NCBI GenBank assembly: GCA_963711795.1
Contig: CAVQFD010000005.1
Span: 580,271 to 644,270, forward strand
Direction: 5' to 3'
DNA length: 64,000 bases
From: an uncultured Acidobacteriota bacterium
Lineage (GTDB): Bacteria; Acidobacteriota; Vicinamibacteria; Vicinamibacterales; CAVVIG01
In this document: in pieces, positions 21,301-52,269 of the stretch
Layout of the letters: every line of letters starts with the position of its first letter
How positions within the stretch are numbered: position 1 is the stretch's first letter
Translations under genes and position numbers: made by a program
Notes under the pieces: generated by a model
The model's database searches: none
What the model saw: the letters and a program-made list of their open reading frames with translations, nothing else
Told to the model about the DNA's origin: nothing

Positions 21301-21916
21301 CAACGCCGTGCTGTTCTCGATCGCCAGGGCGTTGCGCGAGAACGGGAACCGCGTGCTCTATTTCGCGGGCTACAAGAAGGGCGAAGACCTGTTCAAGCGC
21401 GAGGAGATCGAGGCCGCCACCGACCAGGTGATCTGGAGCACCGATATCGGCGCCGCCATTGCTCCGGGGCGTCCGCAGGACGCGCATTTCCGCGGGAACA
21501 TCGTGCAGGCCATGCTGGCGTATCAGGCAGGGGAGCTCGGCACGCCTCTCGTGCCGCTGCCAACCGTGGATCGCATCATCGCGATTGGATCGGATCGCAT
21601 GATGGCCGCCGTGAAGGCCGCTCGCCACGGCTCGCTGGCGCCTCACCTCAAGAAGGAGCACGTCGGGATCGCCAGCATCAACTCGCCGATGCAGTGCATG
21701 ATGAAGGAGGTCTGCGCGCAGTGCCTCCAGAAGCACGTGGATCCGCAGACGGGCAAGGAGTCGATCATCTTTTCCTGCTTCAACCAGGACCAGGACATGG
21801 ATCGCGTGGACTTCCCGAACCTCGCGGCGCGCCTCCGGCAGAACACCGTCCAGGAGAAGCTCACGAACCTCTGGTTCGAGCAGCTCCTGTCCACGGCAGA
21901 CTTCCCACACGTTTGA
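18385..21916 (+). CDS. Large (~1170 aa) Fe-S/FAD-NAD(P) oxidoreductase: GltD-like module fused to a PyrK/FNR-like module (one frameshift as assembled)
   Basis: ORFs 18385..20397 and 20222..21916 join near 20183-20192 ('...VEKVLEQY|DGLCKSVGEARVRAQYDPEEL'). Cys clusters are 'HYCVLCHERNKDSC' and 'MCPGTGHRICNDCMKAC'. Dinucleotide folds are 'VLVVGLGPAGYTLA' and 'AVVIGGGLTAIDTA'. The PyrK-like part is 'HFRPGQFYRLQ...VVVMGPTGAP...LLLGGGLGNAVL' with a terminal 'CMMKEVCAQC...FSCFNQDQ'. Confidence 0.7.
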
Positions 21917-21984
21917 GAAGTCAGAACTTCGAAGTTAGAACTAAGAACTCAGTTCTTAGTTCTAAGTTCTCAGTTCTGACTTCC
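21917..21984. terminator. Imperfect ~30-bp-stem hairpin built from AGAACT-type heptamers between convergent genes (candidate bidirectional terminator)
   Basis: 'gaagtcagaacttcgaagttagaactaagaac' pairs with 'ttcttagttctaagttctcagttctgacttcc'. It starts 1 nt after the oxidoreductase stop (21914-21916). It contains the last codons and the stop (21970-21972) of glk. Confidence 0.55.
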
Positions 21985-22961
21985 CCGCTGTGCGAATGCG
22001 GCCGCGCCAAGCAGGCCGGCATCGGCGTTCAGGATGACCTTGACGGGCATGCGCGCCAGCAGCGCCTCGAACGGCGCCTTGTCGAGAAAGGCGCGCATGA
22101 AACGGCCGGAGACGATCGCGGGCAGGATCTTGGGCGCGATGCCGCCGCCGACAAACACGCCGCCGGTCGCGACCGTCCGCAGGGCCCAGTTCCCGGTTTC
22201 CGCACCGTACGCGTCGACAAACATGTCGAGTGCTTCCATGCAGTCGAGGCAACGGCGATCCAGCGCTGCCGCGGCAATGGCGGGCGGCACCGCCGGGTCG
22301 TCGTCGCTCTGGTCGTCGACCTGGACGACCGTGCACGGCACGGCGTGTGTCACGCGGTGGGTGTTTATCAGGCCTCTTCCCGCCACGATCTTCTCGACCT
22401 CTGCGCGGCCATGGCGGCTCGTCACGAGCCGGAGCAACTCGATCTCGCGTTCCGTCCTCGCCGCGTAGTCGGCGTGCCCCCCTCGGCCGGCGAGGGCACC
22501 AGGCCGAGGCCCTCCACGCGGTGCAGCAAAGCAGATCCAAGCCCGGTTCCGGCCGCGATGAGCGCGATGTTGCCATTCGGGTCGGCCTGACCGGCTTGCA
22601 GCACATGGACCTCTGCGTCTTCCAGCAGCGGCACGGCGTAAGCCATCGCCTGAAGGTCGTTGAGCAGCGACACTCGAGGAATGTCGAAGGCCGCGGCCAC
22701 TGCCGATGCATCGATCCGCCACGGGACGTTGGTCAGCGAGGCCGTCTGGCCGAGCACGGGTCCCGCTACACCGAAGCAGGCGGCCTCGACCCGAGCACCC
22801 ATGACCTCTTGATCCCTCGCAAAGTCCGATATGACGTCGGGGAGGTCCGGGTAGTCGAGCGTCGGAAACGAGCGCACGACGAGCATGCGGGGACGAAAAG
22901 ATCCCGGCTCGAAGAGGCCGAGCAGGGTCTTGGTACCACCAATGTCGCCGGCGAGAAGCAC
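21970..22961 (-). CDS. glk: Glucokinase (one frameshift as assembled)
   Basis: ORF 22422..22961 has 'LLAGDIGGTKT', 'LNDLQAMAY' and 'IAAGTGLG'. The C-terminal half ('GGHADYAARTEREIELL...GGVFVGGGIAPKIL...LLGAAAFA') is the tail of ORF 21970..23379. The two pieces join at the C6 run 22477-22482. Confidence 0.8.
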
Positions 22962-23008
22962 GCGTTACCTCACTTTGCGATTGACGTCGACGGTATTCTC
23001 TATCATCT

Positions 23009-24184
23009 TTGGTGCCGTTTCCCCTCTGGCGCCCCCTGGGAGAAGCTGTGCTGCCGACTTCGTCCGACCTGCCGCCGCGGCCTCCGCTCGATGGGGAACT
23101 CGTGGTGTTCACCGGCAAGCTGAGCTCGCTCGGCCGCAAGGACGCTCGAGCGCTGGTCGAGCGGCTGGGCGGCTCGACCGCGGATGACGTGAACGCGAAG
23201 ACCACCATGCTCGTGGTGGGCGCCGAAGGCTTCGGGCCCACACTCGATCCCGCGCGCGCGAGAAGCCAGAAGATCGTCCGCGCCGAGGAGCTCAACGCGC
23301 AGAAGGCCGCGGTGATCCAGATCCTCACCGAGGAACAGTTTTGCGTGCTGGCGGACGTCCCGACGCCGGACGCTCTCAAGCGCCAGTACCACGCGATGCG
23401 GGATCTGCTGGGCCGCTACCGCAACCTCCGCGAGGATCACCTGCGGTATCTCGTCAAGTGCGGGCTCCTGCGTCCGGTTCTGCGCACCAACGCCGACACG
23501 TTCTTTTCGTTCGCGGACGTGACCATCGTCAAGCGGGCGCACGACGAGCTGGCCGAAGGTGCCTCGTTCAAGCGCGTGGTCAGGGCCCTCCTGGCCTCCA
23601 CCATGGGCCAGCTGGCATTCGACTTCCGGCTCGATGCGGAGCCCGCCCGGATCGTCACGCTGCAGCCCAGGGCGGCCGACGCCGGATCCCGGCGGCCGTC
23701 TTCGCCCGCTGAAGCCCCGCGCGACAGGGCACGCGCGGAGGAATACTTCCGCGCCGCATCGGCACTCGACGATGGCGACGAGGGAAGGCGCGAGGAGGCT
23801 GCCTCGACGTATCGGCAGGCGCTGGAGTGGGATCCGAACCTTGTCGCGGCTCTCATCAACCTGGCGAACATCCACTACTCGCGCGATGAGCTCGCCGAGG
23901 CGCAGGCGCTTTACGAGCGCGCCATCGGCCTCGAACCGGACTTCTTCGAGGCTCACTTCAACCTCGGCAACATCTGCCACGATCTCGGGCGCTTTCCTGA
24001 GGCCGAGGCCTGCTACCTCGAGGCGCTGCGACTGAACCCCATGTACGCCGATACGCACTTCTACCTGGCGGTGACCTTCGAGAAGATGGGCCGCTCGGAC
24101 GAGGCGCGCCCTCACTGGCGCTCGTACCAGCAGCTCGAGCCCCATGGAGAGTGGGTGGAGCTGGCCAGAGAGTTCTCTGAATAA
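23009..24184 (+). CDS. BRCT domain / MerR-like HTH / TPR repeat protein
   Basis: The BRCT part is 'LDGELVVFTGKLSSLGRKDARALVERLGGSTADDVNAKTTMLVVG'. The middle part 'LRYLVKCGLLRPVLRTNADTFFSFADVTIVKRAHDEL' is MerR-HTH-like. C-terminal TPRs include 'ALINLANIHYSRDELAEAQALYERAIGLEPDFFEAHFNLG...'. Confidence 0.6.
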   Translation: MVPFPLWRPLGEAVLPTSSDLPPRPPLDGELVVFTGKLSSLGRKDARALVERLGGSTADDVNAKTTMLVVGAEGFGPTLDPARARSQKIVRAEELNAQKAAVIQILTEEQFCVLADVPTPDALKRQYHAMRDLLGRYRNLREDHLRYLVKCGLLRPVLRTNADTFFSFADVTIVKRAHDELAEGASFKRVVRALLASTMGQLAFDFRLDAEPARIVTLQPRAADAGSRRPSSPAEAPRDRARAEEYFRAASALDDGDEGRREEAASTYRQALEWDPNLVAALINLANIHYSRDELAEAQALYERAIGLEPDFFEAHFNLGNICHDLGRFPEAEACYLEALRLNPMYADTHFYLAVTFEKMGRSDEARPHWRSYQQLEPHGEWVELAREFSE

Positions 24185-24190
24185 AGACGT

Positions 24191-24226
24191 GAAATTGGGA
24201 ATTGGGAATTAGGAATTGAGAATTCG
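24191..24226. repeat. Five tandem GAATTGG-type heptamers
   Basis: 'gaaattgg gaattgg gaattag gaattga gaattcg' begins 6 nt after the BRCT-TPR stop (24182-24184). It overlaps the TTG start (24216) of the next gene. Confidence 0.7.
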
Positions 24227-26998: not shown

Positions 26999-27168
26999 CG
27001 GGGAGGTGTCGACAAGCGTCGGCTCGAGCGCGGGAGCTGACGATGTGGATGGGCGCGGTGCGGCGTAGGTCGGAGTGCGCGCGGGACCGCCGCGCGGTCC
27101 GCGCCTCGGGCGCCCGCGTGATGGTCGTCGATTGCTTGTATTGGAATTCAAACTTGTTTTGTTTCTGG

Positions 27169-27387: not shown

Positions 27388-27467
27388 TCGGGCTAGCTAT
27401 CCTTTCTGTGACCGTTACCGTACAACGTCAAACAAGGATTGTGCCACATGGGGTGGCTGGCTGTCAT

Positions 27468-27799
27468 CATTCTCCACTTTGCGCCGGGGCCCCACCCCCG
27501 GCGCGAACTGACGCCGAACTCGTCGACGGTCTCGGCTCCTGTGGCCGACGCGTATTCTCCACTTTGCGCGCCCACGGCCAACTCGCCGACATCCTCGGAT
27601 CGCTTGCCGGCTCCGTGTGGCCGCAGGCGCTCGTCATTCTCCACTTTGCGCGGGGCCCCACCCCCGCGCCTGTCGCCGCTCGCCCACACTCGCGGCGATG
27701 ATTTGCGGACTTTCCGCTTAGTCACGGCTGGCACCTCTGCCTCGCCCGCTGCTAGCCCGCCCCCGCCTGCCCTGCCTGCCTTGCCAGCCCCGCCCGCCC
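27468..27799. repeat. Composite REP-like element: three 84-bp-spaced 'cattctccactttgcgc' boxes with GC hairpins, then a G/C-rich heptamer array abutting a stop codon
   Basis: The boxes are at 27468, 27552 and 27636. The hairpin cores are 'gcgccggggccccacccccggcgc' and 'gcgcggggccccacccccgcgc'. Region 27636-27799 is an inverted copy of 38047-38230 (for example 'cgcctgtcgccgctcgcccacactcgcggcg...ccgcttagtcac'). It ends directly at the stop (27800-27802) of the acyl-ligase gene. Confidence 0.8.
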
Positions 27800-30349
27800 T
27801 TAGAGTTCTCGAACAGCTCGTTCTACCCGCAGCGCCAGGGCTTCGTAGTCCTCGCCGTCAGCTCGAGCGGCGCGCCGAACGCGACGCGGACGCGGGCCGG
27901 GCGTGGCCATCTTCCAGGTGTGATGCAGCACCTTGTCGAGGCCGTCGATCCGCACCGGCACCACCGGGACGCCGAGCCGCGACGCGATCATGCCGATGCC
28001 CGGCCGGAACGGCTCGATCTCCCCGGCGTCCGATCGTCGGCCCTCCGGGAAGATCAGCACCGAGAAGCCGTCCTCCAGCAGCTCGCCGATGTAGCGGAGC
28101 GTCTGCCGCGCGCCGGCTTCGCGCTGCGGCAGCGGGAACGCGTTGAAGAAGAGCGCGGCCAGGTAGTAGTTGAGGCTGTTGGTGAGCCATGCCTCCCGGC
28201 CGTGTGCTGCTCGGGAAAGAAATGCGCCTTGAAGAACTCCTTGGCCATGGCCGGCGCGACGCGGTACCGCAGCCGCGCGGGCAGCGCCGCCAGAATCACC
28301 GGCGTGTCCATGTGGCTCTGGTGGTTCGCCGCGAAGATCACCGGCCGGTCGATTGCCTTCAGATGCTCGCGGCCCTCGACCGTAATCCGGGCAAAGACGC
28401 GGGCGAGCGGCAGGATCCACGTCGGCAGGCTGAGCCTCCGCAGAGTCGCGCGCCGGCCAGCGCCGGTTCCACGCCGGGAACTCGACCGGCTCGGCTGTGC
28501 GCCTGCGAGGCCGTTCCGGCCTGTTCGACGAGCGTCTGCAGCTGACGACACGTCGCGCGCGGCCGAGAACGCGCCTTCGTCGATCCGCGTCTGAAATGCA
28601 TCTTCGAGCGCCACCATCAGCTCGACGCGTTCGAGCGAGCTCAGGCCCAGCTCCTCGAGCGTCGTCGCCGGCGCGATGTCGGATGCGCCCGGCATGCCTC
28701 GCGACGCAGCGCGGCCAGCCGATCCTGTCCCGCGTGCACCAGCTGCGGCGTCGCCGCCGCTCTTCACCCAGTCGCGGATCGGCGCGCGTTTCAGCTTGCG
28801 CGTGCCTTCGGTGCGCGGCAGCTCCGGCTCGGGCCACGACAGCGCGCGCCGGATCTTCTGATGATCCGCGAGCTGCCGGTTCGCCTCGCCGGCCAGCGCA
28901 TCCGGGTCGACGCCGGGTTCCAGCACGACGCACCGCGTGCACTCGCTCCTCGCCGTCCGCCGGCGCCCGACGACCGCCGAGTCGCGCACGCCCGGCAGCT
29001 GCGTTCAGCACGCGCTCGACGTCCTCCGGAAAGACGTTCAGCCCTTCCGGCGTGACGATCATTTCCTTCTTGCGCCCGCGGATGAACAGCTGGCCGTCGG
29101 CGCCGATCTCGCCGATGTCGCCGGTGTGGAACCAGCCGTCCTCGAACGCTCGCGCGGTCTCCTCGGCGGCGTTGAAGTAGCCGGTCGTGACGTTCTCGCC
29201 GCGCACGAGGATCTCGCCGTCCTGCGCGATCTTCACCTTCGACGCCGGCGATCGCCTTGCCGACCGAGCCTCGTTTGGTGCCGAACGGATGATTGAGCGT
29301 GACGATCGGCGCGGTTTCGGTCAGCCCGTAGCCCTGGATGACCGCGAAGCCCAGCTCGCCCCAGAACGCCTCGAGCTCGCCTTCGAGCGGCGCCGCGCCG
29401 ACGACGAAGCCCAGAACTTGAATCCGAACGCCGATGGATCTGCCGGTAGCGCCACCAGCGCCAGGCGAAGTGCTGCTTCGGCCCCGGCGTCGGCCAGCTC
29501 CGGCGCGAGCGCGCAGCACGTGCTCGCGCAGCACGTCGAGAATCTTCGGCACCGACACCAGCACCGAGATGCGCCGGCTCTTGATCTGCGCGACGATGTC
29601 GCCCGGGTTGTAGCCGCGCATGAAGACGACGACGCCCGGCAGCATCGGCGGGATGAAGGTCGCCATCGCCTGGCCGAACATGTGGCTGAGCGGCAGCAGG
29701 TTCAGGAAGCGCAGCGGGAAGAACGGCGTGCCCCACTTGCGGTACTTCAGGACCTCGCGTTCGACCGGCACGATGTTCGCCAGCACGTTGCGGTGGGTGA
29801 TGACGACGCCCTTGGGCTCGGCGGTCGCGCCCGACGTGAAGATGATCTCGGCGACGTCGTCGCGCCCGATGGCAACCTGCGGGGCCGTGCTCGCGGCCGC
29901 GACGAGCGCCGGCCAGTCGAGCTCGTGCAGCTTCCACGATCGGCGCGCCGGCGGTGTCGTGGCACCGGCGGCACGTCCTGCCCGACGAGCACGAGCCTGC
30001 GCCTGCACGATCCGCGCGACGCGGGCGAGAAAGTCGGGCGACGCGCGGTAGTCGATCGGCACGACGACGACGCCGTTCAGCAGGCAGCCCCAGAACGCGA
30101 CGATCCACTCGGGGCGGTTCTCGGAGAAGAAGACGACCTTGTCGCCTTTGCGCAGGCCGGCGGCATGCAGGCGGCGCCGCGAATCCGCGCGCGGCGCGCG
30201 CCGACCTCCTGGTAGCTGAAGCTGCGGCTCGCGGAATCCATCGTCGTGGACGAGGAAATCGCCGCTGCGCGCGAGCGAGATCGTCGGAAGAAGTCGATGA
30301 GCGTGTCGCGCGACCACGGCTGAATTATGATGGAAAGCCAAAAGGGCAC
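27800..30349 (-). pseudogene. Acyl-CoA/acyl-ACP synthetase (AMP-binding) - carrier-protein domain - PlsC-type acyltransferase tri-domain gene, heavily frameshifted as assembled
   Basis: The pieces lie in ORFs 30077..30349, 28791..30443, 29747..29992, 27800..29236, 28054..28989 and 28359..28601. AMP-binding motifs are 'IIFTSGATAEPKGVVITHRN', 'GYGLTETAP' and 'WFHTGDIGEIGADGQLFIRGRKKEMI'. The PP-binding part is 'LEELGLSSLERVELMVALEDAF'. Acyltransferase motifs are 'FAANHQSHMDTPV' (HX4D) and 'LIFPEGRRS'. At least 8 frame changes are needed to link them. Confidence 0.7.
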
Positions 30350-30356
30350 CTAATGA

Positions 30357-31806
30357 ATGCCGATCGCCTTCCGCGTCTGTCTGCTGCTCGCCGTCGCGTT
30401 CTGGCCTCGCCGGTGCGCGCGTGGCGCTCGCGCAGCCGGCCACGCAGCCGGGGCCGGTGTGGCCGAAGCTGTCCGCCGGCCGAGCGCGATCAGGTGATGC
30501 GCTTCGGCGACGACTTCAAGCAGTTCATCGGCCGCGCAAAGAGCGCGCATGACCTTCGTGCGCGAGGCGCGGGCAGCTGGTCGAGGCCGCGGCTTCAAGC
30601 CGTGGCCCGCGGCGCCGGCAAGGCGGATGTCGGCGCCGGGCTCGCGCTGGTACGCGGTCAACCGCGACCGGACGATTGCCGCGTTCGTCATCGGCACCGA
30701 TCCCGCTGTCGGCGCGGCGCGCGCATCGTCAACACGCACAACGACTCGGTGCACCTCGAGCTCAAGCCCAGGCCGTTCCGCGAGAGCTTCGACATCGCGC
30801 TGCTCGACACGATCGACGCACGGCGGCATGAAGAACTACCAGTGGGTCAACCGGCCGCTGGCGCTCATCGGCCGCGTCATCAAGACCGACGGCACGAGCC
30901 GTGAACGTCGACATCGGCCACGCACCCGGCGATCCCGTGCTGATCATCGCCGACCTCGCGCCGCACGTGGACGCGCGACTTCCTGGAGCCGGACGCAACC
31001 GCGACGTCATCCAGACCGAGGAGCTCGATCCGATCCTGGCGCTCGACCGCGCGAGGCGGCGGCGCAGGCGCTCAAGGAGAAGTACGGCCTGACGCCGCGA
31101 CGATTTTCTGTCGGCCGATCTGCAGATCGTCCCGGCGCAGATGCCGGTCGACGTCGGGCTCGATCGGCAGCTGGTCGGCGCCTACGGCCACGACGACCGT
31201 TCGAACGGGTATGCCGCGTTCCGCGCGATCATCGAAGTGCGGGACGCCCGCGAAGACGGCGGTCGCGTACGGCGTGAACAACGAGGAAGTGAGCTCCTGG
31301 ACGACCGGCGTCGACTCGGAGTGGTTCAGGACGCTGCTGGCGGAGATCATCGCGGCGCAGGAGCCGGCGCTACAACGACCTGATGCTGCGCCACGCGCTC
31401 CGGCGTCGCAGGTGCTGGTGTCCGACTGCACGACGGCGCTCGATCCCGATCTTTCCGCAGCCGTATCTGCCGGCAGGCTCGGCGCGGCTCGGGCTGGGGG
31501 CTCGTGTTCAAGGAGTACGGACCGGGCCGCGAGGCGGACGCCGAGTACTTCGCGCGCATGCGCAGGCTGTTCAACGACGCGGGCGTGCGCTGGCAGACGC
31601 ACGCCTACCGGGCCGGCTACGGCGGCGGCACCATCGCGCAGTGGTTTGCCAACGCCAACATGGACGCGATCGACGTCGGCATCGGCATCCTGAGCATGCA
31701 CTCGCCGATGGACGTCTCGGCGAAGGTCGACGTCTGGGAGCTCTATCGGGGCTTCAAGGCGTTCCTCGGCGCTCCGATGTCGTCGCCGTCACCCTCGTCA
31801 CGCTGA
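30357..31806 (+). pseudogene. Secreted M18-family aminopeptidase-like gene, heavily frameshifted as assembled
   Basis: The signal-like start is 'MPIAFRVCLLLAVAF'. Fragments lie in three frames: 'VMRFGDDFKQFIGRAKSA', 'RWYAVNRDRTIAAFVIGTDP', 'IVNTHNDSVHLELKPRPF' and 'GGMKNYQWVNRPLALIGRVIKTDG'. The intact C-terminus (ORF 31504..31806) is 'GGGTIAQWFANANMDAIDVGIGILSMHSPMD', which fits the M18 'G.p.LSMHS' region. Confidence 0.55.
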
Positions 31807-34504: not shown

Positions 34505-34558
34505 CATTGAGTAATTGGGTAGTTGGGTGATTGAGTAATTGGATTGAGGAATTTGGGG
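34505..34558. repeat. AATTGGGT-type octamer array in a divergent intergenic region
   Basis: 'cattgagt aattgggt agttgggt gattgagt aattggat tgaggaat ttgggg'. It belongs to the same family as the arrays at 49715, 50347 and 50999. Confidence 0.7.
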
Positions 34559-34939
34559 ATGGCAATGTCTATACGCTTGCTGCTTGTCGCCTTGCTCCTG
34601 TCCGGATTGACCGTCGGGTCGGCGGCACAGTCCGCGCCGGCTGGCGCGAAGCCGGCGCTCTTTGCCGTGTTGTTCCGCACCGGACCGAAGTGGGATGCGG
34701 CGAAGCCGCCCAACGATCAGGCGTTCTTCCGTGAGCACTCGGCGAACCTGGCGCGACTGCGGCAGAGCGGGCTCATTCAGATGGGCGCGCGGTACTCGGA
34801 CGTCGGGCTGATCGTGGTGTCCGCCCAGGCCGAAGCGGCCGTGCGCGCGGAGATCGATCGTGATCCGGCTGTCGCGAACGGCACGTTCGTATACGAGCTA
34901 TCTCCGTTCAACGTGTTTTACGACGGCTGCCTCCGGTGA
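34544..34939 (+). CDS. YciI-like domain protein with a signal peptide
   Basis: The signal is 'MSIRLLLVALLLSGLTVGSAAQ'. 'FREHSANLARLRQSGLIQMGARYSD...AEAAVRAEIDRDPAVANGTFVYELSPF' follows the YCII pattern (H..yl..l...G, DPf). The true start may be ATG 34562. Confidence 0.5.
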   Translation: MRNLGMAMSIRLLLVALLLSGLTVGSAAQSAPAGAKPALFAVLFRTGPKWDAAKPPNDQAFFREHSANLARLRQSGLIQMGARYSDVGLIVVSAQAEAAVRAEIDRDPAVANGTFVYELSPFNVFYDGCLR

Positions 34940-35101
34940 AGGCAGGCGGGGCGGGCAAGGCTGGCAGGGCTGGCAGCTGGGCCGACAAAGTGAAGAAGGT
35001 TTGCGCCTGCGGCCATCCCGAGCCGAGGACAAGCAACTCCGAGGCGAGGGATCAGCGTCAGTTCGCGGCGGGGGTGGGGCCCCGCCGCAAAGTGAAGAAA
35101 G
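34940..35101. repeat. Composite REP-like element abutting a stop codon (G-rich heptamers + one ~100-bp unit with a GC hairpin)
   Basis: 'aggcaggcggggcgggcaaggctggcagggctggcag' follows the TGA 34937-34939 directly. The unit 'AAAGTGAAGAAGG...gcgcctgcggcc...gttcgcggcgggggtggggccccgccgcAAAGTGAAGAAAG' follows. This unit is the reverse complement of the 47.3-47.8 kb tandem unit. Confidence 0.8.
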
Positions 35102-35193: not shown

Positions 35194-38046
35194 ATGACGA
35201 ATCGCACGCTGCGAACTGTTGGTCCGGGCTCGGCCCTCTTCCTCGCATTTGCGCTGCTGGCCGGCGCCTGCGGTCCTTCGACCGAGCAGGCCGCGCCGGC
35301 ATCAGCCGCGAACGATGTGCCGACCCTGACATTCGAGAAATACACCCTGCCGAACGGACTCGAAGTCATCCTCTCGGAGGATCGGCGGCTGCCGCTTGTG
35401 GCCGTGAACCTCTGGTACCACGTCGGGCCAGCCAACGAGGAGCCGGGCCGAACGGGCTTCGCGCACCTCTTCGAGCACATGATGTTCCAGGGATCGAAGC
35501 ATGTGCCTGGCGACACCCACTTCCGCTCACTCGAAGGGGCGGGGGCGAGCGACCTGAACGGCACGACGGACTTCGATCGCACGAACTACTTCGAAACGAT
35601 CCCCGCCAACCAGCTGGAGCTCGCGCTGTGGCTCGAGTCCGACCGCATGGGCTACCTGCTCGATCAGGTGGATCAGGCGAACCTTTCGAACCAGCAGGAC
35701 GTCGTGCGCAACGAGAGGCGTCAGAGCGTGGAGAACCAGCCTTACGGGATTGTCGAAGAAGCCTTGTTTCACCAGCTCTTCCCGAAAGAGCACCCCTACT
35801 ACGCGAGCGTGATCGGATCGCACACAGATATCCAGGCTGCGAAGCTCGAGGACGTCAAGAACTTCTTCAAGCTGTACTACGCGCCCAACAACGCCAGCAT
35901 CGCCATCGTCGGGGACATCGACAAGGCGGCCACGAAGGCCCTCGTCGAGAAGTACTTCGGCACGCTCAAGCAGGGGCAGCCGGTGCCAAAGCCCTCCGTG
36001 CAGACGCCGCCGATTTCCGCCGAGCGCCGCGCTGTAGTCCAGGATCGCGTCGAGCTGCCGCGAGTCTACATGGCGTGGCTCACCTCGCCGATTTTCAAGC
36101 CCGGCGACGCAGATGCGGACATCGTTTCCACCGCACTCGGCGGCGGCCGCTCGAGCCGGCTGTACAAGAAGCTGGTCTACGAGAAGCAGATCGCGCAGGA
36201 CGTAAGCGCCGCGCAGTACTCACTGATGCTCGGATCGGTGTTCCAGATCACGGCCACCGCACGGCCGGGGCACACGGCCGAGGAACTCGAGAAGGCCATC
36301 GACGAGGAGCTGGCGCTGCTCCGGCAGAACGGACCCGATCAGAGCGAAGTGGACCGCGCCCGTAACGTCATCGAGACGCGCATCGTTCAGGGACTCGAGA
36401 CGCTCGGCGGCTTTGGCGGTGTCGCCGACCGTCTGAACTCGTACAACCATTATCTTGGCGATCCGGCCTACTTGCCGCAGGACATCAAGCGGTATCGCGA
36501 CGTGACACCGGCCTCGGCGAAGACGTTTGTCGAACAGCAGCTTGGCCAGAGTGCTCGTGTCGTCGTACACGGCGTGCCCGGCACGCCCGACCTGGGAGCG
36601 CCGGTGCCGACACCGAAGGTGGCGCAGGCCGCCCCCGGGACCGGGGCCGAGTCGGCCAATCCCGACGAGCCCTGGCGCAAGGACATGCCCAAGGCGGGCG
36701 AGGCGCGTGCGCTGCAGTTGCCATCGCCGACCTCGTTCGAGCTGCCCAATGGTCTCACTGTGCTGGTCAACGAGCGGCCGGGGCTGCCCATCGTGTCGGC
36801 CGCGTTTGTCGTGAGAACGGGCAGCGGTGCGAATCCCGCGGACAAGCCAGGGCTGGCCAACTTCACGGCCGCCATGCTGGATGAAGGCACGGCCTCTCGC
36901 AACGCTCTGCAGATTGCCGACCAGGTTGCGCAGCTTGGTGCGTCGCTCAGCACGGCGTCGACGATGGATGCGTCGCAGATCTCGGCAGGCTCGCTCCGGC
37001 GGAACTTCCCGGCGCTGCTCGATCTGGTGGCCGATATCGCCAGGCGGCCCAGTTTCCCGGCCGAGGAGATCGATCGCCAGCGGGCCAGCAGGCTTGCGAG
37101 CCTGGTTCAGCAGCGCGAGAACCCGAGCGCCGTCGCGGCGGCAGCGATGGCGGGGGCGCTTTATGGACCGGGTCATCCGTACGGCTACACGGAGCTCGGC
37201 ACCGAAGCCTCGAACAAGGCACTGTCGCGCGACGACATGCAGGCGTTCTGGAAACAGAACTTCGTGCCCAACAACGCGGCCCTGATCGTCTCGGGACAGA
37301 TCACGGTGGCCGACGTGCGTCCGCTCGTCGAGAAGGCTTTCGGAGACTGGGAGAAGGGCGCACAGGTTACGGCGCCCGCCGGCGCGTCGGCGCCGGCCAC
37401 GACGGCCGCGCGCCTGGTGCTCGTGGACAAGCCCGGAGCCCCGCAGACCCAGGTGCGGGTCACGTCAATTGGCGTGCCCCGATCGACGCCCGACTACGAA
37501 GCCATCCGGGTGATGAACGAGACGCTCGGAGGCCTCTTCTCGAGCCGGATCAATCTCAACCTGCGCGAGCAGCACGGCTACACCTATGGAGCAAGCTCGC
37601 AGTTCGTGTTCCGCCGGAGCGCCGGGCCGTTCGTCGTGGCGTCGGGCGTGCGCACGGATGTGACGGCTCCCGCGGTGACCGAGATCTTCAAGGAGATTCG
37701 CCGCATGCGGGACACGGCGCTGACGCCGGAGGAGCTGACGCTGGCGAAGGACTCGATCGTGCGGTCGCTGCCCGCGGAGTTCGAGACGAGCAGCCGCGTC
37801 ACCGGCAGCACCGCGAACATCTACCTCTACGATCTCGGCCTGGATTACTTCGCCAAGGCGCCGGCGCGCCTGTCGGCGATCACCGCCGACCAGGCAAAGG
37901 CCGCAGCCGAGAAGCACATCGTGCCGGAAGCGCTCATCACGGTGGCCGTCGGCGACCGCGCGAAGATCGGCCCGGAGCTGCAGAAGCTGAAGCTCGGCGC
38001 TACAGAGATCCGCGGCGCGGATGGGGCGGTGGTTCAGGGCAGGTAG
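35194..38046 (+). CDS. M16-family (pitrilysin/insulinase-like) zinc peptidase, double-length secreted form
   Basis: The signal/lipobox-like start is 'LFLAFALLAGACG'. The inverted zinc motif is 'GFAHLFEHMMFQGS' (HxxEH) and 'NGTTDFDRTNYFE' is present. A second, inactive M16-like half follows. The 950-aa frame is intact. Confidence 0.85.
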   Translation: MTNRTLRTVGPGSALFLAFALLAGACGPSTEQAAPASAANDVPTLTFEKYTLPNGLEVILSEDRRLPLVAVNLWYHVGPANEEPGRTGFAHLFEHMMFQGSKHVPGDTHFRSLEGAGASDLNGTTDFDRTNYFETIPANQLELALWLESDRMGYLLDQVDQANLSNQQDVVRNERRQSVENQPYGIVEEALFHQLFPKEHPYYASVIGSHTDIQAAKLEDVKNFFKLYYAPNNASIAIVGDIDKAATKALVEKYFGTLKQGQPVPKPSVQTPPISAERRAVVQDRVELPRVYMAWLTSPIFKPGDADADIVSTALGGGRSSRLYKKLVYEKQIAQDVSAAQYSLMLGSVFQITATARPGHTAEELEKAIDEELALLRQNGPDQSEVDRARNVIETRIVQGLETLGGFGGVADRLNSYNHYLGDPAYLPQDIKRYRDVTPASAKTFVEQQLGQSARVVVHGVPGTPDLGAPVPTPKVAQAAPGTGAESANPDEPWRKDMPKAGEARALQLPSPTSFELPNGLTVLVNERPGLPIVSAAFVVRTGSGANPADKPGLANFTAAMLDEGTASRNALQIADQVAQLGASLSTASTMDASQISAGSLRRNFPALLDLVADIARRPSFPAEEIDRQRASRLASLVQQRENPSAVAAAAMAGALYGPGHPYGYTELGTEASNKALSRDDMQAFWKQNFVPNNAALIVSGQITVADVRPLVEKAFGDWEKGAQVTAPAGASAPATTAARLVLVDKPGAPQTQVRVTSIGVPRSTPDYEAIRVMNETLGGLFSSRINLNLREQHGYTYGASSQFVFRRSAGPFVVASGVRTDVTAPAVTEIFKEIRRMRDTALTPEELTLAKDSIVRSLPAEFETSSRVTGSTANIYLYDLGLDYFAKAPARLSAITADQAKAAAEKHIVPEALITVAVGDRAKIGPELQKLKLGATEIRGADGAVVQGR

Positions 38047-38230
38047 GGCGGGCAAGGCAGCGCGGGGCAGGCAGGGCAGACACGCGCCGCGGCGCGAGGC
38101 TGAGGCAGGCACGTCAGGCCTGGCGCCAAGTGAATGTCACTAAGCGGGGAGTCGCCGCAAGTCACCGCCGCGAGCGCGGGCGAGCGGCGACGGGCGCGGG
38201 GGTGGGGCCCCCGCGCAAGTGAGAAATGTT
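38047..38230. repeat. Composite REP-like element between two convergent stop codons
   Basis: It starts right after the TAG 38044-38046 with 'ggcgggcaaggcagcgcggggcaggcagggcag'. It ends with the hairpin and box 'gcgcgggggtggggcccccgcgcaagtgagaaatg', 7 nt before the cca stop. It is an inverted copy of 27636-27799. Confidence 0.8.
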
Positions 38231-40659: not shown

Positions 40660-40744
40660 CCCGGGGGACTGCTTGTAGAGACGCCGGACGAGCCGGCGGG
40701 GTTCAGTGGCTGCAAAATATAGATGGTAAATAACTTACGGTTGA

Positions 40745-40852
40745 CACGAAGACGCGAAGACACGAAGGGCCCACGAAACCGGGCCGAAGACGCGGCTCAT
40801 GGCTCACGCCTTATGGCTTAAGGGTCTTCTTCGTGCTTTCGTGTTTTCGTGG
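40745..40852. repeat. Inverted pair of CACGAAG-type heptamer arrays (hairpin arms about 55 nt apart) just after a stop codon
   Basis: The left arm is 'cacgaagacgcgaagacacgaag'. The right arm is 'cttcgtgctttcgtgttttcgtg' (reverse complement 'cacgaaaacacgaaagcacgaag'). The right arm ends 5 nt from the proline dehydrogenase stop (40858-40860). Confidence 0.65.
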
Positions 40853-40857
40853 CGGGT

Positions 40858-41788
40858 TCAGCGCTCGCTGAGGATTCCGCGGAGGACGAACGCGACGTTG
40901 GCGGGGCGCTCGCCCAGGCGGCGCATGAAGTAGGGGAACCACTGGCGCCCGAAGGGAATGTAAATGCGCACGCGATAGCCGTCCTTGACGAGCGCCTGCT
41001 GAAGGTCGCGGCGAATCCCGTAGAGCATCTGGAACTCGAAGCGGTCCTTCCCGATGTCGAGCCGCGTTGCAAGCTGCTGCGCGGCCGAGAGGATGTCGGG
41101 GTCGTGTGTCGCGATCGCGGGATAGTGCCCTTCGCGCAGCAGCACCTCCATCATCCGGAGATACGCCGCATCCACATCGTCCTTGTTCGCGTACGCGATG
41201 GTCTTGCTCTCTTTGTACGCGCCCTTGACCAGGCGCACGCGCGCACCCAGGGCATTCACACGGCGCAAGTCTTCTTCGCTCCGGCGGAGATCCGCCTGCA
41301 GCACGACGCCCATCTGGTGATAGCCCTGATGCCAGAGCGTCTGGAAGATGTCGAGCGTCATCTCCGTGTAGGCCGAGCTTTCCATGTCGATCCGGACGAA
41401 GAAGTTCTCGGCACGCTCGAAGATGCGGCGGAGGTGATCGACGGCCGTGGCACGGTCGACATCCAGCCCGAGCTGCGTGAGCTTGATCGACAGGTTGCGC
41501 TCGACGCCCGCGGCGGCGATCGCCCCGGCCACCTTGATGTATTCGCTGGTCGCCTGCTCGGCCTCGGCCAGGCTCCGTGACGCTCTCGCCCAGGTAATCG
41601 AGCGTCACCAGGCAGCCGCGGGCTTCGACCGCACGCGCGGCTTCGATCGCCTCGGCGACGGTCTCGCCCGCAATGAAGCGGCGCGGAAAGCTCCTCGAGC
41701 TTCGCATGCCGTAGCGCGAGGACAGTGTCTTGAGGATTCGGCTCTTGGCGAGGAGGTGGAAGAATGTTTTCGAAGCGTTGTCGAGCAT
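40858..41788 (-). CDS. Proline dehydrogenase (one frameshift as assembled)
   Basis: ORF 40858..41532 has '...IKLTQLGLDV...FVRIDMESS...GVVLQADLRRS...VRLVKGAY...ATHD...FEFQMLYGIR...RVRIYIPFG..W..YFMRRLGERPAN'. The N-terminus 'MLDNASKTFF...FIAGETVAEAIEAARAVEARGCLVTLDYLGESVT' lies in the frame of ORF 40811..42919 and joins near 41568-41573. The start is ATG 41788. Confidence 0.8.
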
Positions 41789-47290: not shown

Positions 47291-47307
47291 GCCGTGTCTC
47301 CTTTTTT

Positions 47308-47808
47308 CACTGGCGGCGGGGCCCCACCCCCGCCGCGAACTGACGCCGACGCGCTCGCCTCGGATTCGCTCGTCCTCGGCTCGGCGTGGCCGCAGGCGCT
47401 TTTTCATCCACTGGCGGCGGGGCCCCACCCCCGCCGCGAACTGACGCCGACGCGCTCGCCTCGGAGTCGCTCGTCCTCGGCTCGGCGTGGCCGCAGGCGC
47501 TTTTTCATCCACTGGCGGCGGGGCCCCACCCCCGCCGCGAACTGACGCCGACGCCTCGCCTCGGATTCGCTCGTCCTCGGCTCGGCGTGGCCGCAGGCGC
47601 TTTTTTCATCCACTGGCGGCGGGGCCCCACCCCCGCCGCGAACTGACGCCGACGCACTCGCCTCGGATTTGCTCGTCCTCGGCTCGGCGTGGCCGCAGGC
47701 GCTTTTTTCATCCACTGGCGGCGGGATCCCACCCCCGCCGCGAACTGACGCCGACGCACTCGCCTCGGATTTGCTCGTCCTCGGCTCGGCGTGGCCGCAG
47801 GCGCTTTC
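47308..47808. repeat. Tandem array, 5 copies of a 101-bp (101/101/101/102) unit with a 9-bp GC-stem hairpin
   Basis: The unit begins 'cactggcggcggggccccacccccgccgcgaactgacgccgacgc...ggctcggcgtggccgcaggcgcttttt(t)catc'. Copies start at 47308, 47409, 47510, 47611 and 47713. Copies 1-2 and copies 4-5 share private variants ('gcgctcgcctcgga(t/g)tcgc' versus 'gcactcgcctcggatttgc'). Confidence 0.95.
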
Positions 47809-47897
47809 CAGTTCTTACTTCGCAGTTCTTCGTTCTGACTTCCCGATCCCCGATCCCCGTTCCCTGTTTTTCGTTCTCTGTTCTCTGTTCTCTGTGT
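47809..47897. repeat. Low-complexity pyrimidine-rich heptamer tract
   Basis: 'cagttcttacttcgcagttcttcgttctgacttcc cgatccc cgatccc cgttccc tgttttt cgttctc tgttctc tgttctc tgtgttg', upstream of the response regulator gene. Confidence 0.7.
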
Positions 47898-47948
47898 TGA
47901 TTGGACTGGTATCCCGTGACCGGGTGATGGACGATCTGTGACAAGTTC

Positions 47949-48692: not shown

Positions 48693-48699
48693 TCGGTCG

Positions 48700-49704: not shown

Positions 49705-49714
49705 GGCAGGCTCA

Positions 49715-49875
49715 GGAATTGGGTAACCGAGTAATTGGGTGATTGGGTAATCGGCGAATCGGGTAATTTGGAAATTGAATTGTCACAATTACCGAATCAA
49801 TTCCCAGATTCCCAAATGAATCAATCGTTCAATCGCGCAATTACCAAATTACCCAACTACTCAATTACCCAATTC
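49715..49875. terminator. Long imperfect hairpin built from AATTGGGT-type octamers (candidate terminator)
   Basis: The left arm is 'ggaattgggtaaccgagtaattgggtgattgggtaatcgg...'. The right arm is '...ccaaattacccaactactcaattacccaattc'. The centre is near 49784 ('aattgtcacaatt'). It starts 10 nt after the TAA at 49702-49704. Confidence 0.55.
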
Positions 49876-49920
49876 GATTGATGCATCTTTTAGCGAAGTG
49901 TCCCGAAGTGTGATGCGAGC

Positions 49921-50346
49921 TTGCCTGTCGAGGCCGCCGATGCACCGCCGTCGATTACGTGCGGCCGCTGCGGCCAGTTGATACCGCTGAACGTGTCGGC
50001 GCCGGTACGGGCCGACCAGGCGGTCGACGCCTGTCCAGTGTGCTCGGGTGGAGACTTCTACACGCGGAAGGACTTCGATCCGAAGGTCGGCCTGGCATTC
50101 GTCGTGGCGGGCGCGGCCATCAGCGCCGTCTTCTACTGGTTCGCCATGGACCTCGTCGCATACTCGATCCTCGGAGCCGCGGCGCTCATCGATCTCGTCG
50201 TCTACGGACGGCTGAAGGACCTGACGGTCTGCTACCGCTGCCACACCGAATTCCGCGGCGCGTATCCGAGGACGGCGCCTGCCTTCGATCTCCATACGGC
50301 CGATGTGCTCGAGCAGGAGTACCAGAGGCGCATAGGGCGCAGGTGA
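49921..50346 (+). CDS. Zinc-ribbon membrane protein (hypothetical)
   Basis: 'CGRCGQ...CPVCSGGDF', then two hydrophobic helices ('VGLAFVVAGAAISAVFYWF', 'VAYSILGAAALIDLVVY'), then 'CYRCHTEF'. Confidence 0.5.
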   Translation: MPVEAADAPPSITCGRCGQLIPLNVSAPVRADQAVDACPVCSGGDFYTRKDFDPKVGLAFVVAGAAISAVFYWFAMDLVAYSILGAAALIDLVVYGRLKDLTVCYRCHTEFRGAYPRTAPAFDLHTADVLEQEYQRRIGRR

Positions 50347-50497
50347 ATCGGGTAATCGGGTGATTGGGTAATTGAGTAATCGGCGAATCGGGGAATTTGG
50401 TAATTGGGCGTTGTTGCAACGATTGCGACGATTGCGACGATTGCGACGATTTCGACGATTGCACTGATTGCGACGATTGCCGCGATTGAGACGATTG
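50347..50497. repeat. Left arm of a long inverted repeat: AATCGGGT-type octamers followed by CGACGATTG-type nonamers
   Basis: 'aatcgggt aatcgggt gattgggt aattgagt aatcggcg aatcgggg aatttggt aattgggc' is followed by 'caacgattg cgacgattg cgacgattg cgacgattt cgacgattg cactgattg cgacgattg ccgcgattg agacgattg'. It spans from 1 nt after the TGA at 50344-50346 to the stop of the four-helix-bundle gene. Confidence 0.9.
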
Positions 50498-50875
50498 CTA
50501 CGAGTCCGCTTGTCGGCGGCGGTTGCGGCGCGCGGTGCCGAGCGAGGCTGAGAAGATCGCCAGGATCTGACGCGCCTCGGCCCTCAGTAGTTGAAGGTCG
50601 GATGTGTCGGTCAGCCCGGATTCCGCAATCAGGTCGAGCCATGCGGCTGTTTCGTCCGCTTCCTCAGCAACCAGCCCAATCTTGGCCGTGAACTCGGCAT
50701 GCGACCTGGCGCGGCAGGCCGCGCGGTAGTTCATGTCGACCGAGGTGGCAGATTTTGCCAACTGTCGCTGGATCGTTGGCCCAGGCTCCGTTGAGGGCAA
50801 CCGCTGAATCAGCGCGATAATACCGAGCGCAAACCGCCGGACCCGCTGCTCGAGAAGTTCAGCCTGATCGCCCAT
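50498..50875 (-). CDS. Four-helix-bundle protein (23S rRNA intervening-sequence protein family)
   Basis: 'LEQRVRRFALGIIALIQRLPSTEPGPTIQRQLAKSATSVDMNYRAACRARSHAEFTAKIGLVAEEADETAAWLDLIAESGL' follows the family pattern (F...i..l...lP......i..Ql.rsatSi..N..Ea....S..eF..k...a..E..Et..Wl.l). The proposed start is ATG 50875. Confidence 0.75.
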   Translation of the reverse strand: MGDQAELLEQRVRRFALGIIALIQRLPSTEPGPTIQRQLAKSATSVDMNYRAACRARSHAEFTAKIGLVAEEADETAAWLDLIAESGLTDTSDLQLLRAEARQILAIFSASLGTARRNRRRQADS

Positions 50876-50943
50876 GGGGTTCTCGAGACTCCGTGCCACC
50901 ACCGAGCAATCACCAGGCCGTCGGTTTCAGGTTCTGAATCCTT

Positions 50944-51055
50944 CCAATCGCTCCAATCGTCGCAATCGATTCAATCGTCGCAATCGTTCCGATAGCAACT
51001 ACCCAATTACCCGATGGGCCGATTACCCAATCACCCAATTACGCGATTACCCAAT
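50944..51055. repeat. Right arm of the long inverted repeat (CAATCGTCG nonamers, then ACCCAATT octamers)
   Basis: 'ccaatcgct ccaatcgtcg caatcgatt caatcgtcg caatcgttc' is followed by 'ctacccaa ttacccga tgggccga ttacccaa tcacccaa ttacgcga ttacccaa tt'. Its reverse complement mirrors the architecture of 50347-50497. It abuts the restored moeA stop (51058..51056). Confidence 0.9.
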
Positions 51056-52269
51056 TCAGAAGAGCGTCACCGTGACCATCGCGCTCTCTTCCACCACGCT
51101 CTGAGTCAGAGGGAATCTCGATGTAGCCATCGGCCTGCGAGAGGCTCGTGATGTCGCCCGATGCCTTGAAGGCGGGATGCGCCACGCCGTCGCGTCACGC
51201 GCACGGTGTAGAACTGGTGCCGGCCGGCCTGGGAGACGATGCGCCGGCCGAGCGGGACGCGCGAGCGTGCGCGCGGGCGTAGATCGGCAGGCGCGCCGTG
51301 GCGCGCAGGAACGGCACGAGCAGGATGTAGGCGTTCGACAGGCATGAAGTCGGGTTGCCCGGCATGCCGAAAAACGGCGCGCCGTTGACCAGCGCGAAGC
51401 GCGTGGGCTTGCCGGGCTTGACGGCGATGCCGTGGAAGACAGCTCGACCCCGCTCGGCGATCAGGTCGACCATCAGATCGCGATCGCCGACCGAGCTTCC
51501 GCCCGAGAACACGATGATGTCCGCGTCGGCGCACGCATCGAGCGTGGCGTGCAGCGCGCGAGCGTGTCCTGGGCGGGCCGATGGGCCTCGGGGATGCCGC
51601 CGTGCGCGCGGACGACCGCGCGCGAGCGTGAAGCGGTTGACGTCGTAGATCTGGCCGGGCAGCGAGGGGCTGGCCGGGATCGATGACCTCGTTGCCCGTG
51701 GAGACGAGCGCGACGCGCGGCCGCGCGAACACGTCGACCTCGAGCGCTCCGACCGCCGCGACCGCTCCCAGGCGGCTCGCGTTCAGCGCCTGACCGGCGC
51801 GGACGACGAGATCGCCCGTCACGATGTCGGCTCCCTGCCGTCCGATGTTCTGCCCGGCCCTGGCCGTGGCCGCGATGTCCACGTGATGCTCGTCGACGCG
51901 TCGAGTCTCCTCGACCATCACCACGGCGTCGGCGCCGGCAGGAATCGGCGCGCCCGTGGCGATTTCGGCGCACGACCCTGACAGGACCGTGTAGCCCGAT
52001 GGCTGTCCCGTGAAGATCCGGTCGGCGATCCTGAGGCGCACGGGTGTGTCTGGTGCCGCCGCCGCCACGTCTGCCGCGATGACGGCGTAGCCGTCCATTG
52101 CCGATCGCGCAAACGGCGGCACGTCGACCGGCGAGGCCACGTCGGTTGCAGCCACTCGGCCGCCGGCGTCGGAGAGGACCACCCGTTCGGTTCGCGTGAT
52201 GGGGCGCAGGTGCTCGGTCAGGAGCAGGCGCGCTTCCTCGAGCGAGATCGTTGAAGCAAAAGGCCGCAT
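51056..52269 (-). pseudogene. moeA: Molybdopterin molybdotransferase MoeA, about six frameshifts as assembled
   Basis: The N-terminal 200 aa are intact ('PFARSAMDGYAV', 'IATGAPIPAGADAVVMVEE', 'GQNIGRQGADI', 'VALVSTGNEV'). After that the sensible sequence hops frames: 'PGQIYDVNRFTLAR', 'AVVRAHGGIPE', 'IIVFSGGSSVGDRDLM...GIAVKPGKPT...GMPGNPTSC', 'RHQFYTVRVT', 'DGVAHPAFKASGDITSLSQADGYIEIPSDSER' and 'VEESAMVTVTLF*'. The shifts are near 51662, 51615, 51560, 51285, 51197 and 51090. Confidence 0.75.

Follow-up and report, generated by a model that had tools for sequence, protein, structure and literature searches.

Why do so many genes in one stretch of soil-bacterial DNA run, within a few nucleotides of their stop codons, into tandem arrays of 7–9-nt units of several unrelated flavours? 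The question is raised by a 64,000-nt stretch from an uncultured member of the Acidobacteriota (order Vicinamibacterales, CAVVIG01; contig CAVQFD010000005.1 of assembly GCA_963711795.1, positions 580,271–644,270 of the forward strand), referred to here, at its full length, as the window. Comparison with related genomes shows that the arrays constitute a lineage-wide class of short tandem repeats in the Vicinamibacterales, resembling the short tandemly repeated repetitive (STRR) sequences of cyanobacteria. They sit 3' of genes, usually starting no more than about 12 nt from the stop, and are commonest between convergent genes. They also turn over fast, whole blocks being gained or lost between genomes that are about 90% identical. 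One subset, the AATYGGGT octamers and CAATCGTCG nonamers at 49.7–51.1 kb, provides the inverted arms of a stem-loop element that is similar to the intervening sequences (IVSs) of 23S rRNA genes and encloses a PF05635 gene, encoding one of the 23S rRNA intervening-sequence proteins (IVPs).

Arrays were defined with Tandem Repeats Finder (TRF) as tracts of period 5–10 with at least 2.8 copies, and the window was compared with 100 dinucleotide shuffles. By this measure it holds 17 short-period arrays against 2.6 in the shuffles, and 13 against 0.13 when arrays scoring at least 40 are counted, while a pattern search for the octamer returns 19 matches where 0.01 would be expected. With periods of 7–9 nt and 3–10 copies each, the arrays represent at least six repeat flavours, spread over at least 12 intergenic sites of a window whose GC content is 61–70%. 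An earlier note on this DNA had listed eleven stop codons abutted by such arrays, and reading of the sequence recovers all eleven stops together with their arrays. Some genes obtain their stop codon and last residues from the arrays.

Several genes of this assembly are frameshifted, namely MoeA (51057–52269), glk (21970–22961) and an AMP-binding/acyltransferase gene (27800–30443), which are split over two or three frames; the MoeA stop at 51057 becomes visible only after frame correction. The orthologues of all three are intact in two relatives (L106 and L192) and have the same gene ends there, and the frameshifts point to indel errors of a long-read metagenome-assembled genome (MAG) rather than to pseudogenes. 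Such frameshifts, typical of nanopore indel errors, are also what speaks for regarding the arrays themselves as an artefact of sequencing or assembly. The probability of that explanation is negligible, given that arrays of matching architecture turn up in many samples assembled independently (MEGAHIT, SPAdes and nanopore), that degenerate units follow one another in an order shared by independent genomes, and that finished plasmids bear IVP-flanking arrays too.

The rule of placement emerges from a wider set of relatives. Species-representative genomes were scanned with the diaminopimelate (DAP)-dehydrogenase-like protein of the window, yielding 80 loci (1.39 Mb; best match 90% identical), nearly all labelled as Acidobacteriota, Vicinamibacterales or Vicinamibacteria MAGs, with the exceptions of L002 (Betaproteobacteria) and L037 (Acidimicrobiia). 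The underlying assemblies are nanopore (Microflora Danica), MEGAHIT and SPAdes (nanopore and Illumina). TRF detects 133 short-period arrays across these loci, and their presence in so many loci and in assemblies of several kinds means that they are neither specific to one contig nor produced by assembly. Genes were called by a codon-usage caller trained on the loci, and the arrays were grouped into 97 intergenic clusters. A stop codon lies within 12 nt on either side of a cluster edge in 55 of the 97, where about two would be expected if clusters were placed at random in the space without called genes. Since that space also contains genes missed by the caller, this null is too generous to the finding, and tests by gap type and by gene side were therefore added. 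Among the 3' gene sides bordering a cluster, 68 of 123 fall within 12 nt, against 8 of 69 among the 5' sides. Of the 39 clusters that occupy co-directional gaps, 33 are closer to the stop than to the following start. Sorted into convergent, co-directional and divergent gaps, clusters give a ratio of 42:39:15, compared with 124:298:193 for all gaps of 25–1000 nt; convergent gaps thus make up 20% of all gaps but hold 44% of the clusters. Random placement relative to stops, or confinement to this contig, had been named beforehand as the outcomes that would undermine the idea; what is found instead is that 80 loci carry arrays and that these are biased towards stops.

The arrays are also oriented relative to the gene they follow, as the earlier note had proposed. 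Read along the sense strand of the gene that they abut, 44 of 57 arrays have more G than C, and AATTGGGT always lies in the sense direction. The sense-strand composition is 24% A, 27% T, 32% G and 17% C, and the GC content of the arrays is 49% compared with 66% for the genome. Stop triplets in all three frames occur in 20 of 57 arrays on the sense strand and 13 of 57 on the antisense strand, a difference that lends weak backing to a role as stops independent of frame. Rho utilisation sites, considered as a further candidate, are ruled out because the sense strand is G-rich and C-poor.

A simple reading of this pattern is neutral: the arrays would be by-products of replication slippage, to which the lineage would be prone, in unconstrained, AT-rich 3' intergenic DNA, and would mark stops only since other positions are constrained. 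Their depletion near starts and in divergent gaps agrees with this, as do the many flavours, their fast replacement at orthologous sites, the unstructured nature of most arrays, and differences in copy number such as that of the nonamer arm between the window and L106. Against it stand the sense-strand excess of G over C, the very strong stems formed by the roughly 20% of clusters that are inverted-paired, and the persistence of a unit at orthologous sites over dS >1. An 11–32-fold concentration around one protein family in five phyla, described below, is not expected from slippage alone, and a purely neutral origin appears improbable.

The fast turnover is best seen at orthologous gene ends. 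The same stop carries different units in different genomes, including AATTGGGT, AGGTTCGAA/CGAACCCAT, TAGGCTC/AGAGCCT, AGGCTCA/CCCTGAG, AACCCTG, AAAAGGG, CGCCGAT and AGGAGTT, and some genomes bear a plain hairpin resembling a repetitive extragenic palindrome (REP) in place of an array. A distinct REP-like palindrome, GTCCGGCTKMAGCCGGAC, lies downstream of the DAP-dehydrogenase-like gene in L008, L009, L014, L015, L016 and L021, where other genomes have arrays. L106 is a collinear relative with 91.4% nucleotide identity to the window. Between the two, the octamer hairpin is conserved unit for unit, the nonamer arm has been rebuilt in L106 into an 18–19-nt higher-order repeat, and a 590-nt composite block is missing from L106 at a clean junction. 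In the window this block (47304–47892, minus strand) occupies the divergent gap between the LTXXQ and response-regulator genes; in minus-strand order it consists of AGAGAAC in 3.3 copies, GATCGGG in 3.3 copies, AGAACT-like heptamers and 4.9 copies of a 101-nt unit. The same site holds GGGGAAC heptamers with a different 77-nt repeat in L001, and GGAGCCT heptamers in L192. The latter genome has gained an inverted-array hairpin of about 200 nt (ACGGAGA/CTCCGYT, 22132–22341) between the response-regulator and DAP-dehydrogenase-like genes, which are adjacent or overlapping in the window (48692/48676).

Comparable gains and losses affect the three G-rich arrays (GGCAGGC/GGCGGGG), which are degenerate rather than clean heptamers, are assigned period 9 by TRF, and form the leading part of composites that run on into 101-nt REP-like units. 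The first of them (27745–27799, minus strand) directly abuts the acyltransferase stop TAA at 27800–27802 (minus) and continues into two REP-like units with GGGGTGGGGCCCC hairpins at about 27440–27740 (minus); L192 retains the array and one REP-like unit behind this stop. The second (34940–34981, plus strand) abuts the stop TGA 34937–34939 of a YCII-like gene and is followed by one 101-nt REP-like unit at about 34990–35100 (plus), and the whole block, 34940–35100, is absent in L192, where the gap measures 24 nt. The third (38035–38079, plus strand) contains the M16 peptidase stop TAG 38044–38046 and is backed by a diverged REP-like unit that has GGGGTGGGGCCCCC and AAGTGAGAAATG at its end and reaches 38225 (block 38035–38225, plus); hardly anything of the array is present in L192, and nothing in L193. 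On the other side of the YCII-like gene, ATTGGGTA-type octamers in 4.6 copies (34506–34553, plus) lie in a divergent gap just 5' of the gene, and are matched by ATTGGGTA at position 8424 of L192 and by ATTGGGTG at position 2322 of L193. The CACGAAG flavour at the proline dehydrogenase site is kept in L001 and L192, with differing arm content.

The 101-nt unit consists of a GGGGTGGGGCCCCGC hairpin followed by (A)AGTGRAGAAWG, occurs in one to five tandem copies and always adjoins short-period arrays. It forms the 4.9-copy tandem at 47308–47807 and has further sites at 27440–27740 (minus), 34990–35100 (plus) and 38100–38225 (plus), its cores being found only in the window (nine) and in L001 (two). 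Relative to the YCII-like gene, the unit is on the 3' side in the window and on the 5' side in L192.

Such coming and going recalls mobile DNA, and insertions like those of miniature inverted-repeat transposable elements (MITEs) had been suggested for this locus. On this account, the arrays and the 101-nt composites would be selfish, non-autonomous elements akin to MITEs or bacterial interspersed mosaic elements (BIMEs), inserted by a machinery that aims at gene 3' ends or existing hairpins, and serving no host function. The presence/absence polymorphism does fit, as shown by the clean filled and empty states of the 590-nt block between 91%-identical genomes, by the L192 hairpin between genes adjacent in the window, and by the change of side of the 101-nt unit around the YCII-like gene. 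The mosaic of array plus REP-like unit recurs at four window sites, a module of array, IVP gene and array is present at a second locus in L092, and IVSs, sporadic in distribution, have long been suspected of mobility (PMC4990558). The MITE part of the suggestion is not supported, as neither a target-site duplication nor defined termini are found at the 47304–47892 filled/empty junction between the window and L106. No transposase or REP-associated tyrosine transposase (RAYT) was seen near the arrays, the window and L106 share the order of single units in the octamer hairpin by vertical descent, the IVP gene keeps its syntenic position across the order, and sites differ in their unit sequence, as copies of a single element would not. 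A selfish origin without host function is rated as unlikely.

The element at 50346–51056 shows how paired arrays enclose a gene. Its plus-strand order is octamers, nonamers, the PF05635 gene on the minus strand, inverted nonamers and inverted octamers. The left arm (50346–50503, plus) opens with 7.9 copies of the octamer AATCGGGT (50346–50408), which abut the zinc-ribbon gene stop TGA 50344–50346, and continues with ten copies of the nonamer TTGCGACGA (50414–50503), which contain the IVP stop TAG 50498–50500 (minus). The IVP gene occupies 50498–50902 (minus) and encodes a four-helix bundle. In the right arm (50943–51056, plus), CAATCGTCG nonamers (50943–50990) are followed by 7.6 copies of the octamer CAATTACC (50996–51056), abutting the MoeA stop TGA 51057–51059 (minus). 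When the whole element is folded as RNA, the arms pair over about 110 bp around the open reading frame (ORF), with −341 kcal/mol and a z-score of −8.3. The protein matches PF05635 above the Pfam gathering score (E 1.2e-11) as well as PDB entry 2RLD (E 7e-9), and it is under purifying selection (dN/dS 0.08–0.29).

The slot formed by the zinc-ribbon gene, IVP and MoeA is kept in many Vicinamibacterales. The orientation of IVP is flipped in L001, L003, L093 and L107, and an alignment of the window with L001 places the complete element in reverse, which is what recombination between the inverted arms would produce. In every relative, including L092, where IVP sits at an unrelated locus, the gene has AATYGGGT arrays on its flanks. 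A gene-less version of the element is the solo octamer hairpin at 49717–49874, in which AATYGGGT units (49717–49775) face CAATTACC units (49838–49874). This hairpin lies between the stop of the DAP-dehydrogenase-like gene (TAA 49702–49704), from which 12 nt separate the octamers, and the zinc-ribbon gene, and it is conserved in six genomes (including L106, L001, L081, L091 and L093). The AATYGGGT unit persists at three orthologous sites although dS is 1–2, which argues for selection or ongoing homogenisation. The 1.4 Mb of Vicinamibacterales loci contain PF05635 ORFs nowhere but at the one syntenic position and in L092, and none of the AGAACT, CACGAAG and GGCAGGC flavours is found beside a PF05635 gene there. 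Units of the GGTTCGA type serve as inner arms of some IVP modules (L093, L114) and are also common as solo arrays. Any link between IVP and the non-octamer arrays is a conjecture.

The association of arrays with PF05635 genes extends well beyond the Acidobacteriota. A tblastn search of plasmids with the window IVP returned 17 records, with matches in Nostoc, Planktothrix, Gloeocapsa, Pseudanabaena, Dolichospermum, Chlorohelix, Bernardetia and Treponema. In the inspected plasmid loci, tandem 7–8-nt arrays flank the gene for a 'four helix bundle protein', weakly so in L098, and those on its two sides are usually inverted relative to each other. The Gloeocapsa gene, for instance, reads GGAATTTTAGATTTTAGATTT-ATG...TAA-TCTAAAATCTAAAATCC, while in Treponema the gene is preceded by 41 copies of GGAAAGN and 6.6 copies of TCCGCTC and followed by 11 copies of CTCTCCG. 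Array density on the plasmids is 8.1/kb within 150 nt of a PF05635 gene and 0.25/kb elsewhere (233 kb; Poisson P ~1e-25). A soil metagenome scan with an alignment of seven IVP sequences added 80 further loci of 42–70% identity. At least one array lies within 150 nt of the gene in 71 of these 80 loci, and on both sides in 36, giving a density of 4.3/kb near the gene against 0.38/kb elsewhere (P ~1e-88). Where both flanks could be compared, they are similar in inverted orientation in 31 of 62 loci and in direct orientation in four. Arrays therefore reach 11–32 times background density around PF05635 genes in Acidobacteriota, Cyanobacteriota, Chloroflexota, Bacteroidota and Spirochaetota. The units differ by protein subgroup and between paralogues, as illustrated by GTCGGAG and GGGTGTG in N. 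punctiforme, and by AATYGGGT or GTTTGAG in soil subgroups.

Several of the plasmid genes and their arrays lie between genes of defence operons (L094, L096–L098, L101, L105, L108 and L111, from Chlorohelix, Planktothrix, Gloeocapsa, Pseudanabaena and Dolichospermum). The contexts include DISARM drmD / IVP / MmeI, helicase / IVP / methylase and csx2 / IVP / cas1, and the arrangement DUF1156 / IVP / Swt1-HEPN is identical in a cyanobacterium and a member of the Chloroflexota. On the Gloeocapsa plasmid pGLO7428.03 (L103, 9870–10088), perfect heptamer arrays (AATCAAA in 4.6 copies, ATTTTAG in 4.4 and AATCAAA in 5.0) are found within the coding sequence annotated as DUF1156, with the IVP gene 2.2 kb downstream of them.

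A tentative generalisation is that PF05635 genes with inverted flanking 7–9-nt arrays form a widespread IVS-like module, located mostly outside rRNA genes, whose protein may recognise, maintain or mobilise its own unit. Orphan arrays, such as the cyanobacterial STRRs and the stop-abutting arrays of Vicinamibacterales, would then be non-autonomous derivatives of the module or sites acted upon in trans. In literature covered mostly outside subscription journals, no statement linking PF05635 genes to STRR-type arrays was found except for a remark on heptamers in Coxiella.

A related possibility, likewise more doubtful than probable, is that each unit is a DNA or RNA site on a multivalent platform for an oligomeric protein. 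For AATYGGGT the candidate would be the pentameric PF05635 protein encoded within the arrays, with (AATTGGGT)n and (ACCCAATT)n as the predicted cognate repeats of the window protein, and solo arrays elsewhere would be further sites for this protein or its paralogues. Such a role is favoured by the flanking of PF05635 genes by arrays in every lineage examined, by the variation of the unit between paralogues, and by the retention of AATYGGGT at three orthologous sites and at the L092 locus. It would also suit the mostly unstructured arrays better than a stem does. The superfamily of four-helix bundles to which PF05635 belongs includes Avd, a pentamer of diversity-generating retroelements that binds nucleic acid and reverse transcriptase (PMC10053308), and the S23p structure is a toroidal pentamer (PMC4990558). 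On the other hand, most arrays in the 80 Vicinamibacterales loci have no PF05635 gene in cis, three of the flavours have not been seen beside one, shared ancestry alone could make unit and protein co-vary, and the Coxiella protein appears not to be made (PMC4990558).

Among the paired arrays, a palindromic one of AGAACT-type heptamers forms a 67-nt hairpin (21917–21983) between the convergent oxidoreductase and glucokinase stops; it starts at 21917, next to the oxidoreductase stop TGA 21914–21916 (plus), and its right arm contains the glk stop at 21970–21972 (minus) and overlaps the final glk codons. The hairpin at 21914–21986 has a folding energy of −41 kcal/mol (z −9.9). Inverted CACGAAG/TTCGTG octamer-like arrays (40743–40852) form another, 5 nt past the proline dehydrogenase stop TGA 40858–40860 (minus), with −48 kcal/mol for 40738–40857 (z −4.0), and the solo octamer hairpin reaches −70 kcal/mol (z −8.3). 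The proposal that facing arrays form strong hairpins is thus borne out, with z-scores of −4 to −10. An example of an unpaired array is that of AATTGGG heptamers in 4.6 copies (24193–24224, plus), 8 nt past the stop TAA 24182–24184 of a TPR/BRCT gene, which has a single orientation and is unstructured (fold z −1.0).

The best overall explanation, judged to have about an even chance of being correct, is that the STRR-like arrays act as co-transcribed 3'-tail or stem modules. Each array would form the 3' tail of the transcript of the gene upstream of it, and paired arrays may fold into long imperfect RNA stems that define or protect transcript 3' ends. By analogy with the stems of 23S rRNA intervening sequences, these could be substrates of RNase III. 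Unpaired arrays would represent half-elements or expansions. Accumulation at stops may arise because no other intergenic space escapes the constraints set by promoters and ribosome-binding sites, and arrays would originate and change by slippage, by arm–arm recombination, which would also flip an enclosed gene, and through blocks being inserted or deleted.

A number of observations weigh against this explanation. About 70% of the clusters have a single orientation and fold no better than shuffles; only about 20 of the 97 reach z < −3, while 68 have z > −2. As most clusters are unstructured, a role as RNA stems cannot explain most arrays. For the octamer stem, covariation gives support neither way because its arms are repeats, and the conservation of AATYGGGT at three orthologous sites over dS >1 points to sequence-specific recognition rather than mere pairing. 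Co-transcription, 3'-end formation and cleavage by RNase III are all inferred. About 15% of the clusters lie in divergent gaps, as do two window arrays, the octamers at 34506–34553 and the heptamers at 47842–47895, which stand 5' of genes in 5'/5' gaps and show that the rule of following a stop has exceptions. The placement statistics, moreover, rest on a purpose-built codon-based gene caller, and the loci all surround one gene neighbourhood and include non-independent orthologous sites.

The view of the arrays as 3'-tail modules does not make them ordinary terminators. A scan of the window for canonical hairpins followed by U-runs gave 12 sites against 9.3 expected, none of them at the arrays. 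The array hairpins are AT-rich, long and free of T-runs or a U-tract, unlike intrinsic terminators, so that the terminator idea in its canonical form is excluded. An Rfam scan of the window recognised nothing at the arrays, its sole match being a tRNA gene at 54762–54835.

G-quadruplexes had also been suggested for the G-rich flavour, which would form them on the sense strand or in RNA and thereby pause transcription or translation termination. In each of the three arrays of this flavour the sense strand is indeed G-rich right behind the stop, and a relaxed motif (loops of 1–12 nt) is present in two of them. The canonical motif (four runs of at least three G with loops of 1–7 nt) occurs in none of the three, G-runs are common in a genome of 66% GC, the array at the M16 stop is barely kept in L192 and lost in L193, and the other flavours are unable to form quadruplexes. 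This makes the suggestion weak and its correctness highly improbable.

The genes flanking the arrays are recognisable by Pfam matches as glucokinase, TPR/BRCT, acyltransferase, YCII-like, M16 peptidase, proline dehydrogenase, DAP-dehydrogenase-like, MoeA and PF05635 genes. Elsewhere in the window, repeats of 132–135 nt (44–45 codons; 70–75% identical) lie at 4235–4648, 7675–8287 and 10174–10751 in long minus-strand ORFs. They resemble coding repeats of the FG-GAP/VCBS type and are unrelated to the intergenic arrays. Many contigs with IVP homologues are only 0.5–2 kb long and often end at gene borders, and a 98%-identical M16 orthologue (P0121) is a 2853-nt gene on a contig of 2926 nt. These cases are consistent with the breaking of short-read assemblies at flanking repeats, and such breakage by the arrays is of practical concern.

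STRR heptamers have served for decades as fingerprinting markers of cyanobacteria, their function unexplained since 1990, and the protein products of 23S rRNA intervening sequences are orphans too. Arrays of this type are now seen to pervade a second, abundant soil phylum under a measurable rule, in which they abut stops and carry their G-rich strand in the sense direction, and to be physically coupled to PF05635 genes in five phyla. If the module of PF05635 gene and arrays proves true, it would give STRRs and IVS proteins a common, testable function.

Among known systems, the Avd genes of diversity-generating retroelements are related through the protein. The window gene differs in that it has no reverse transcriptase or pairs of template and variable repeats (TR/VR) nearby and is flanked by short tandem arrays. 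REPs, known from enterobacteria, are single imperfect palindromes of about 35 nt with a genome-wide consensus, and their hairpins can stabilise upstream mRNA. Like REPs and BIMEs, the window arrays are extragenic, favour gene 3' ends and convergent gaps and form mosaics of several short motifs, and the 101-nt unit with its GGGGTGGGGCCCC hairpin behaves like a REP. In contrast to them, the arrays are tandem repeats of 7–9-nt units in many unrelated flavours, rather than one genome-wide palindrome of about 35 nt.

The resemblance to intervening sequences is closer in architecture. IVSs with an S23p/PF05635 ORF are known from the 23S rRNA genes of Leptospira, Coxiella, Xanthomonas and Brucella, where they are inserted in helices 9, 25 or 45. 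In Coxiella and Leptospira, RNase III cuts the stem of the IVS; that of Coxiella bears tandem GACAGAT heptamers of strain-variable copy number just upstream of the S23p ORF, and the first of these repeats is where the Coxiella cut falls (PMC4990558). The window element is set between the protein-coding zinc-ribbon and MoeA genes rather than in a 23S rRNA helix, with no Rfam rRNA match in the window; its stem is built of tandem arrays and measures about 110 bp compared with 28 bp in Coxiella, and its ORF is under purifying selection, whereas that of Coxiella is decaying. Two of the three testable hallmarks of an IVS, the long terminal inverted-repeat stem and the PF05635 ORF, are nevertheless present in the element at 50.3–51.1 kb.

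The nearest relatives of the arrays as a class are the STRRs. To our knowledge, neither stop-codon abutment nor a sense-strand excess of G over C has been reported for them. The window arrays also belong to a different host, a member of the Vicinamibacterales (Acidobacteriota) with 66% GC rather than a heterocystous cyanobacterium, have periods of 7–9 nt, are in some cases joined to a 101-nt REP-like unit, and include no tandem copies of the STRR1–3 units CCCCAGT, TTGGTCA and CAACAGT anywhere in the window. The earlier note had recognised no described class of element here, a view that overlooks the cyanobacterial STRR sequences, which are 7-bp tandem repeats of several families, intergenic, hairpin-forming and of unknown function, with proposed roles of the hairpins in transcript stability or translational coupling (PMC2670836). 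With tandem units of about 7 nt, several families per genome, dispersed non-coding positions and a capacity to form hairpins, the window arrays share the features of this class, and arrays of Nostoc, Dolichospermum and Planktothrix flank PF05635 genes just as those of the window do.

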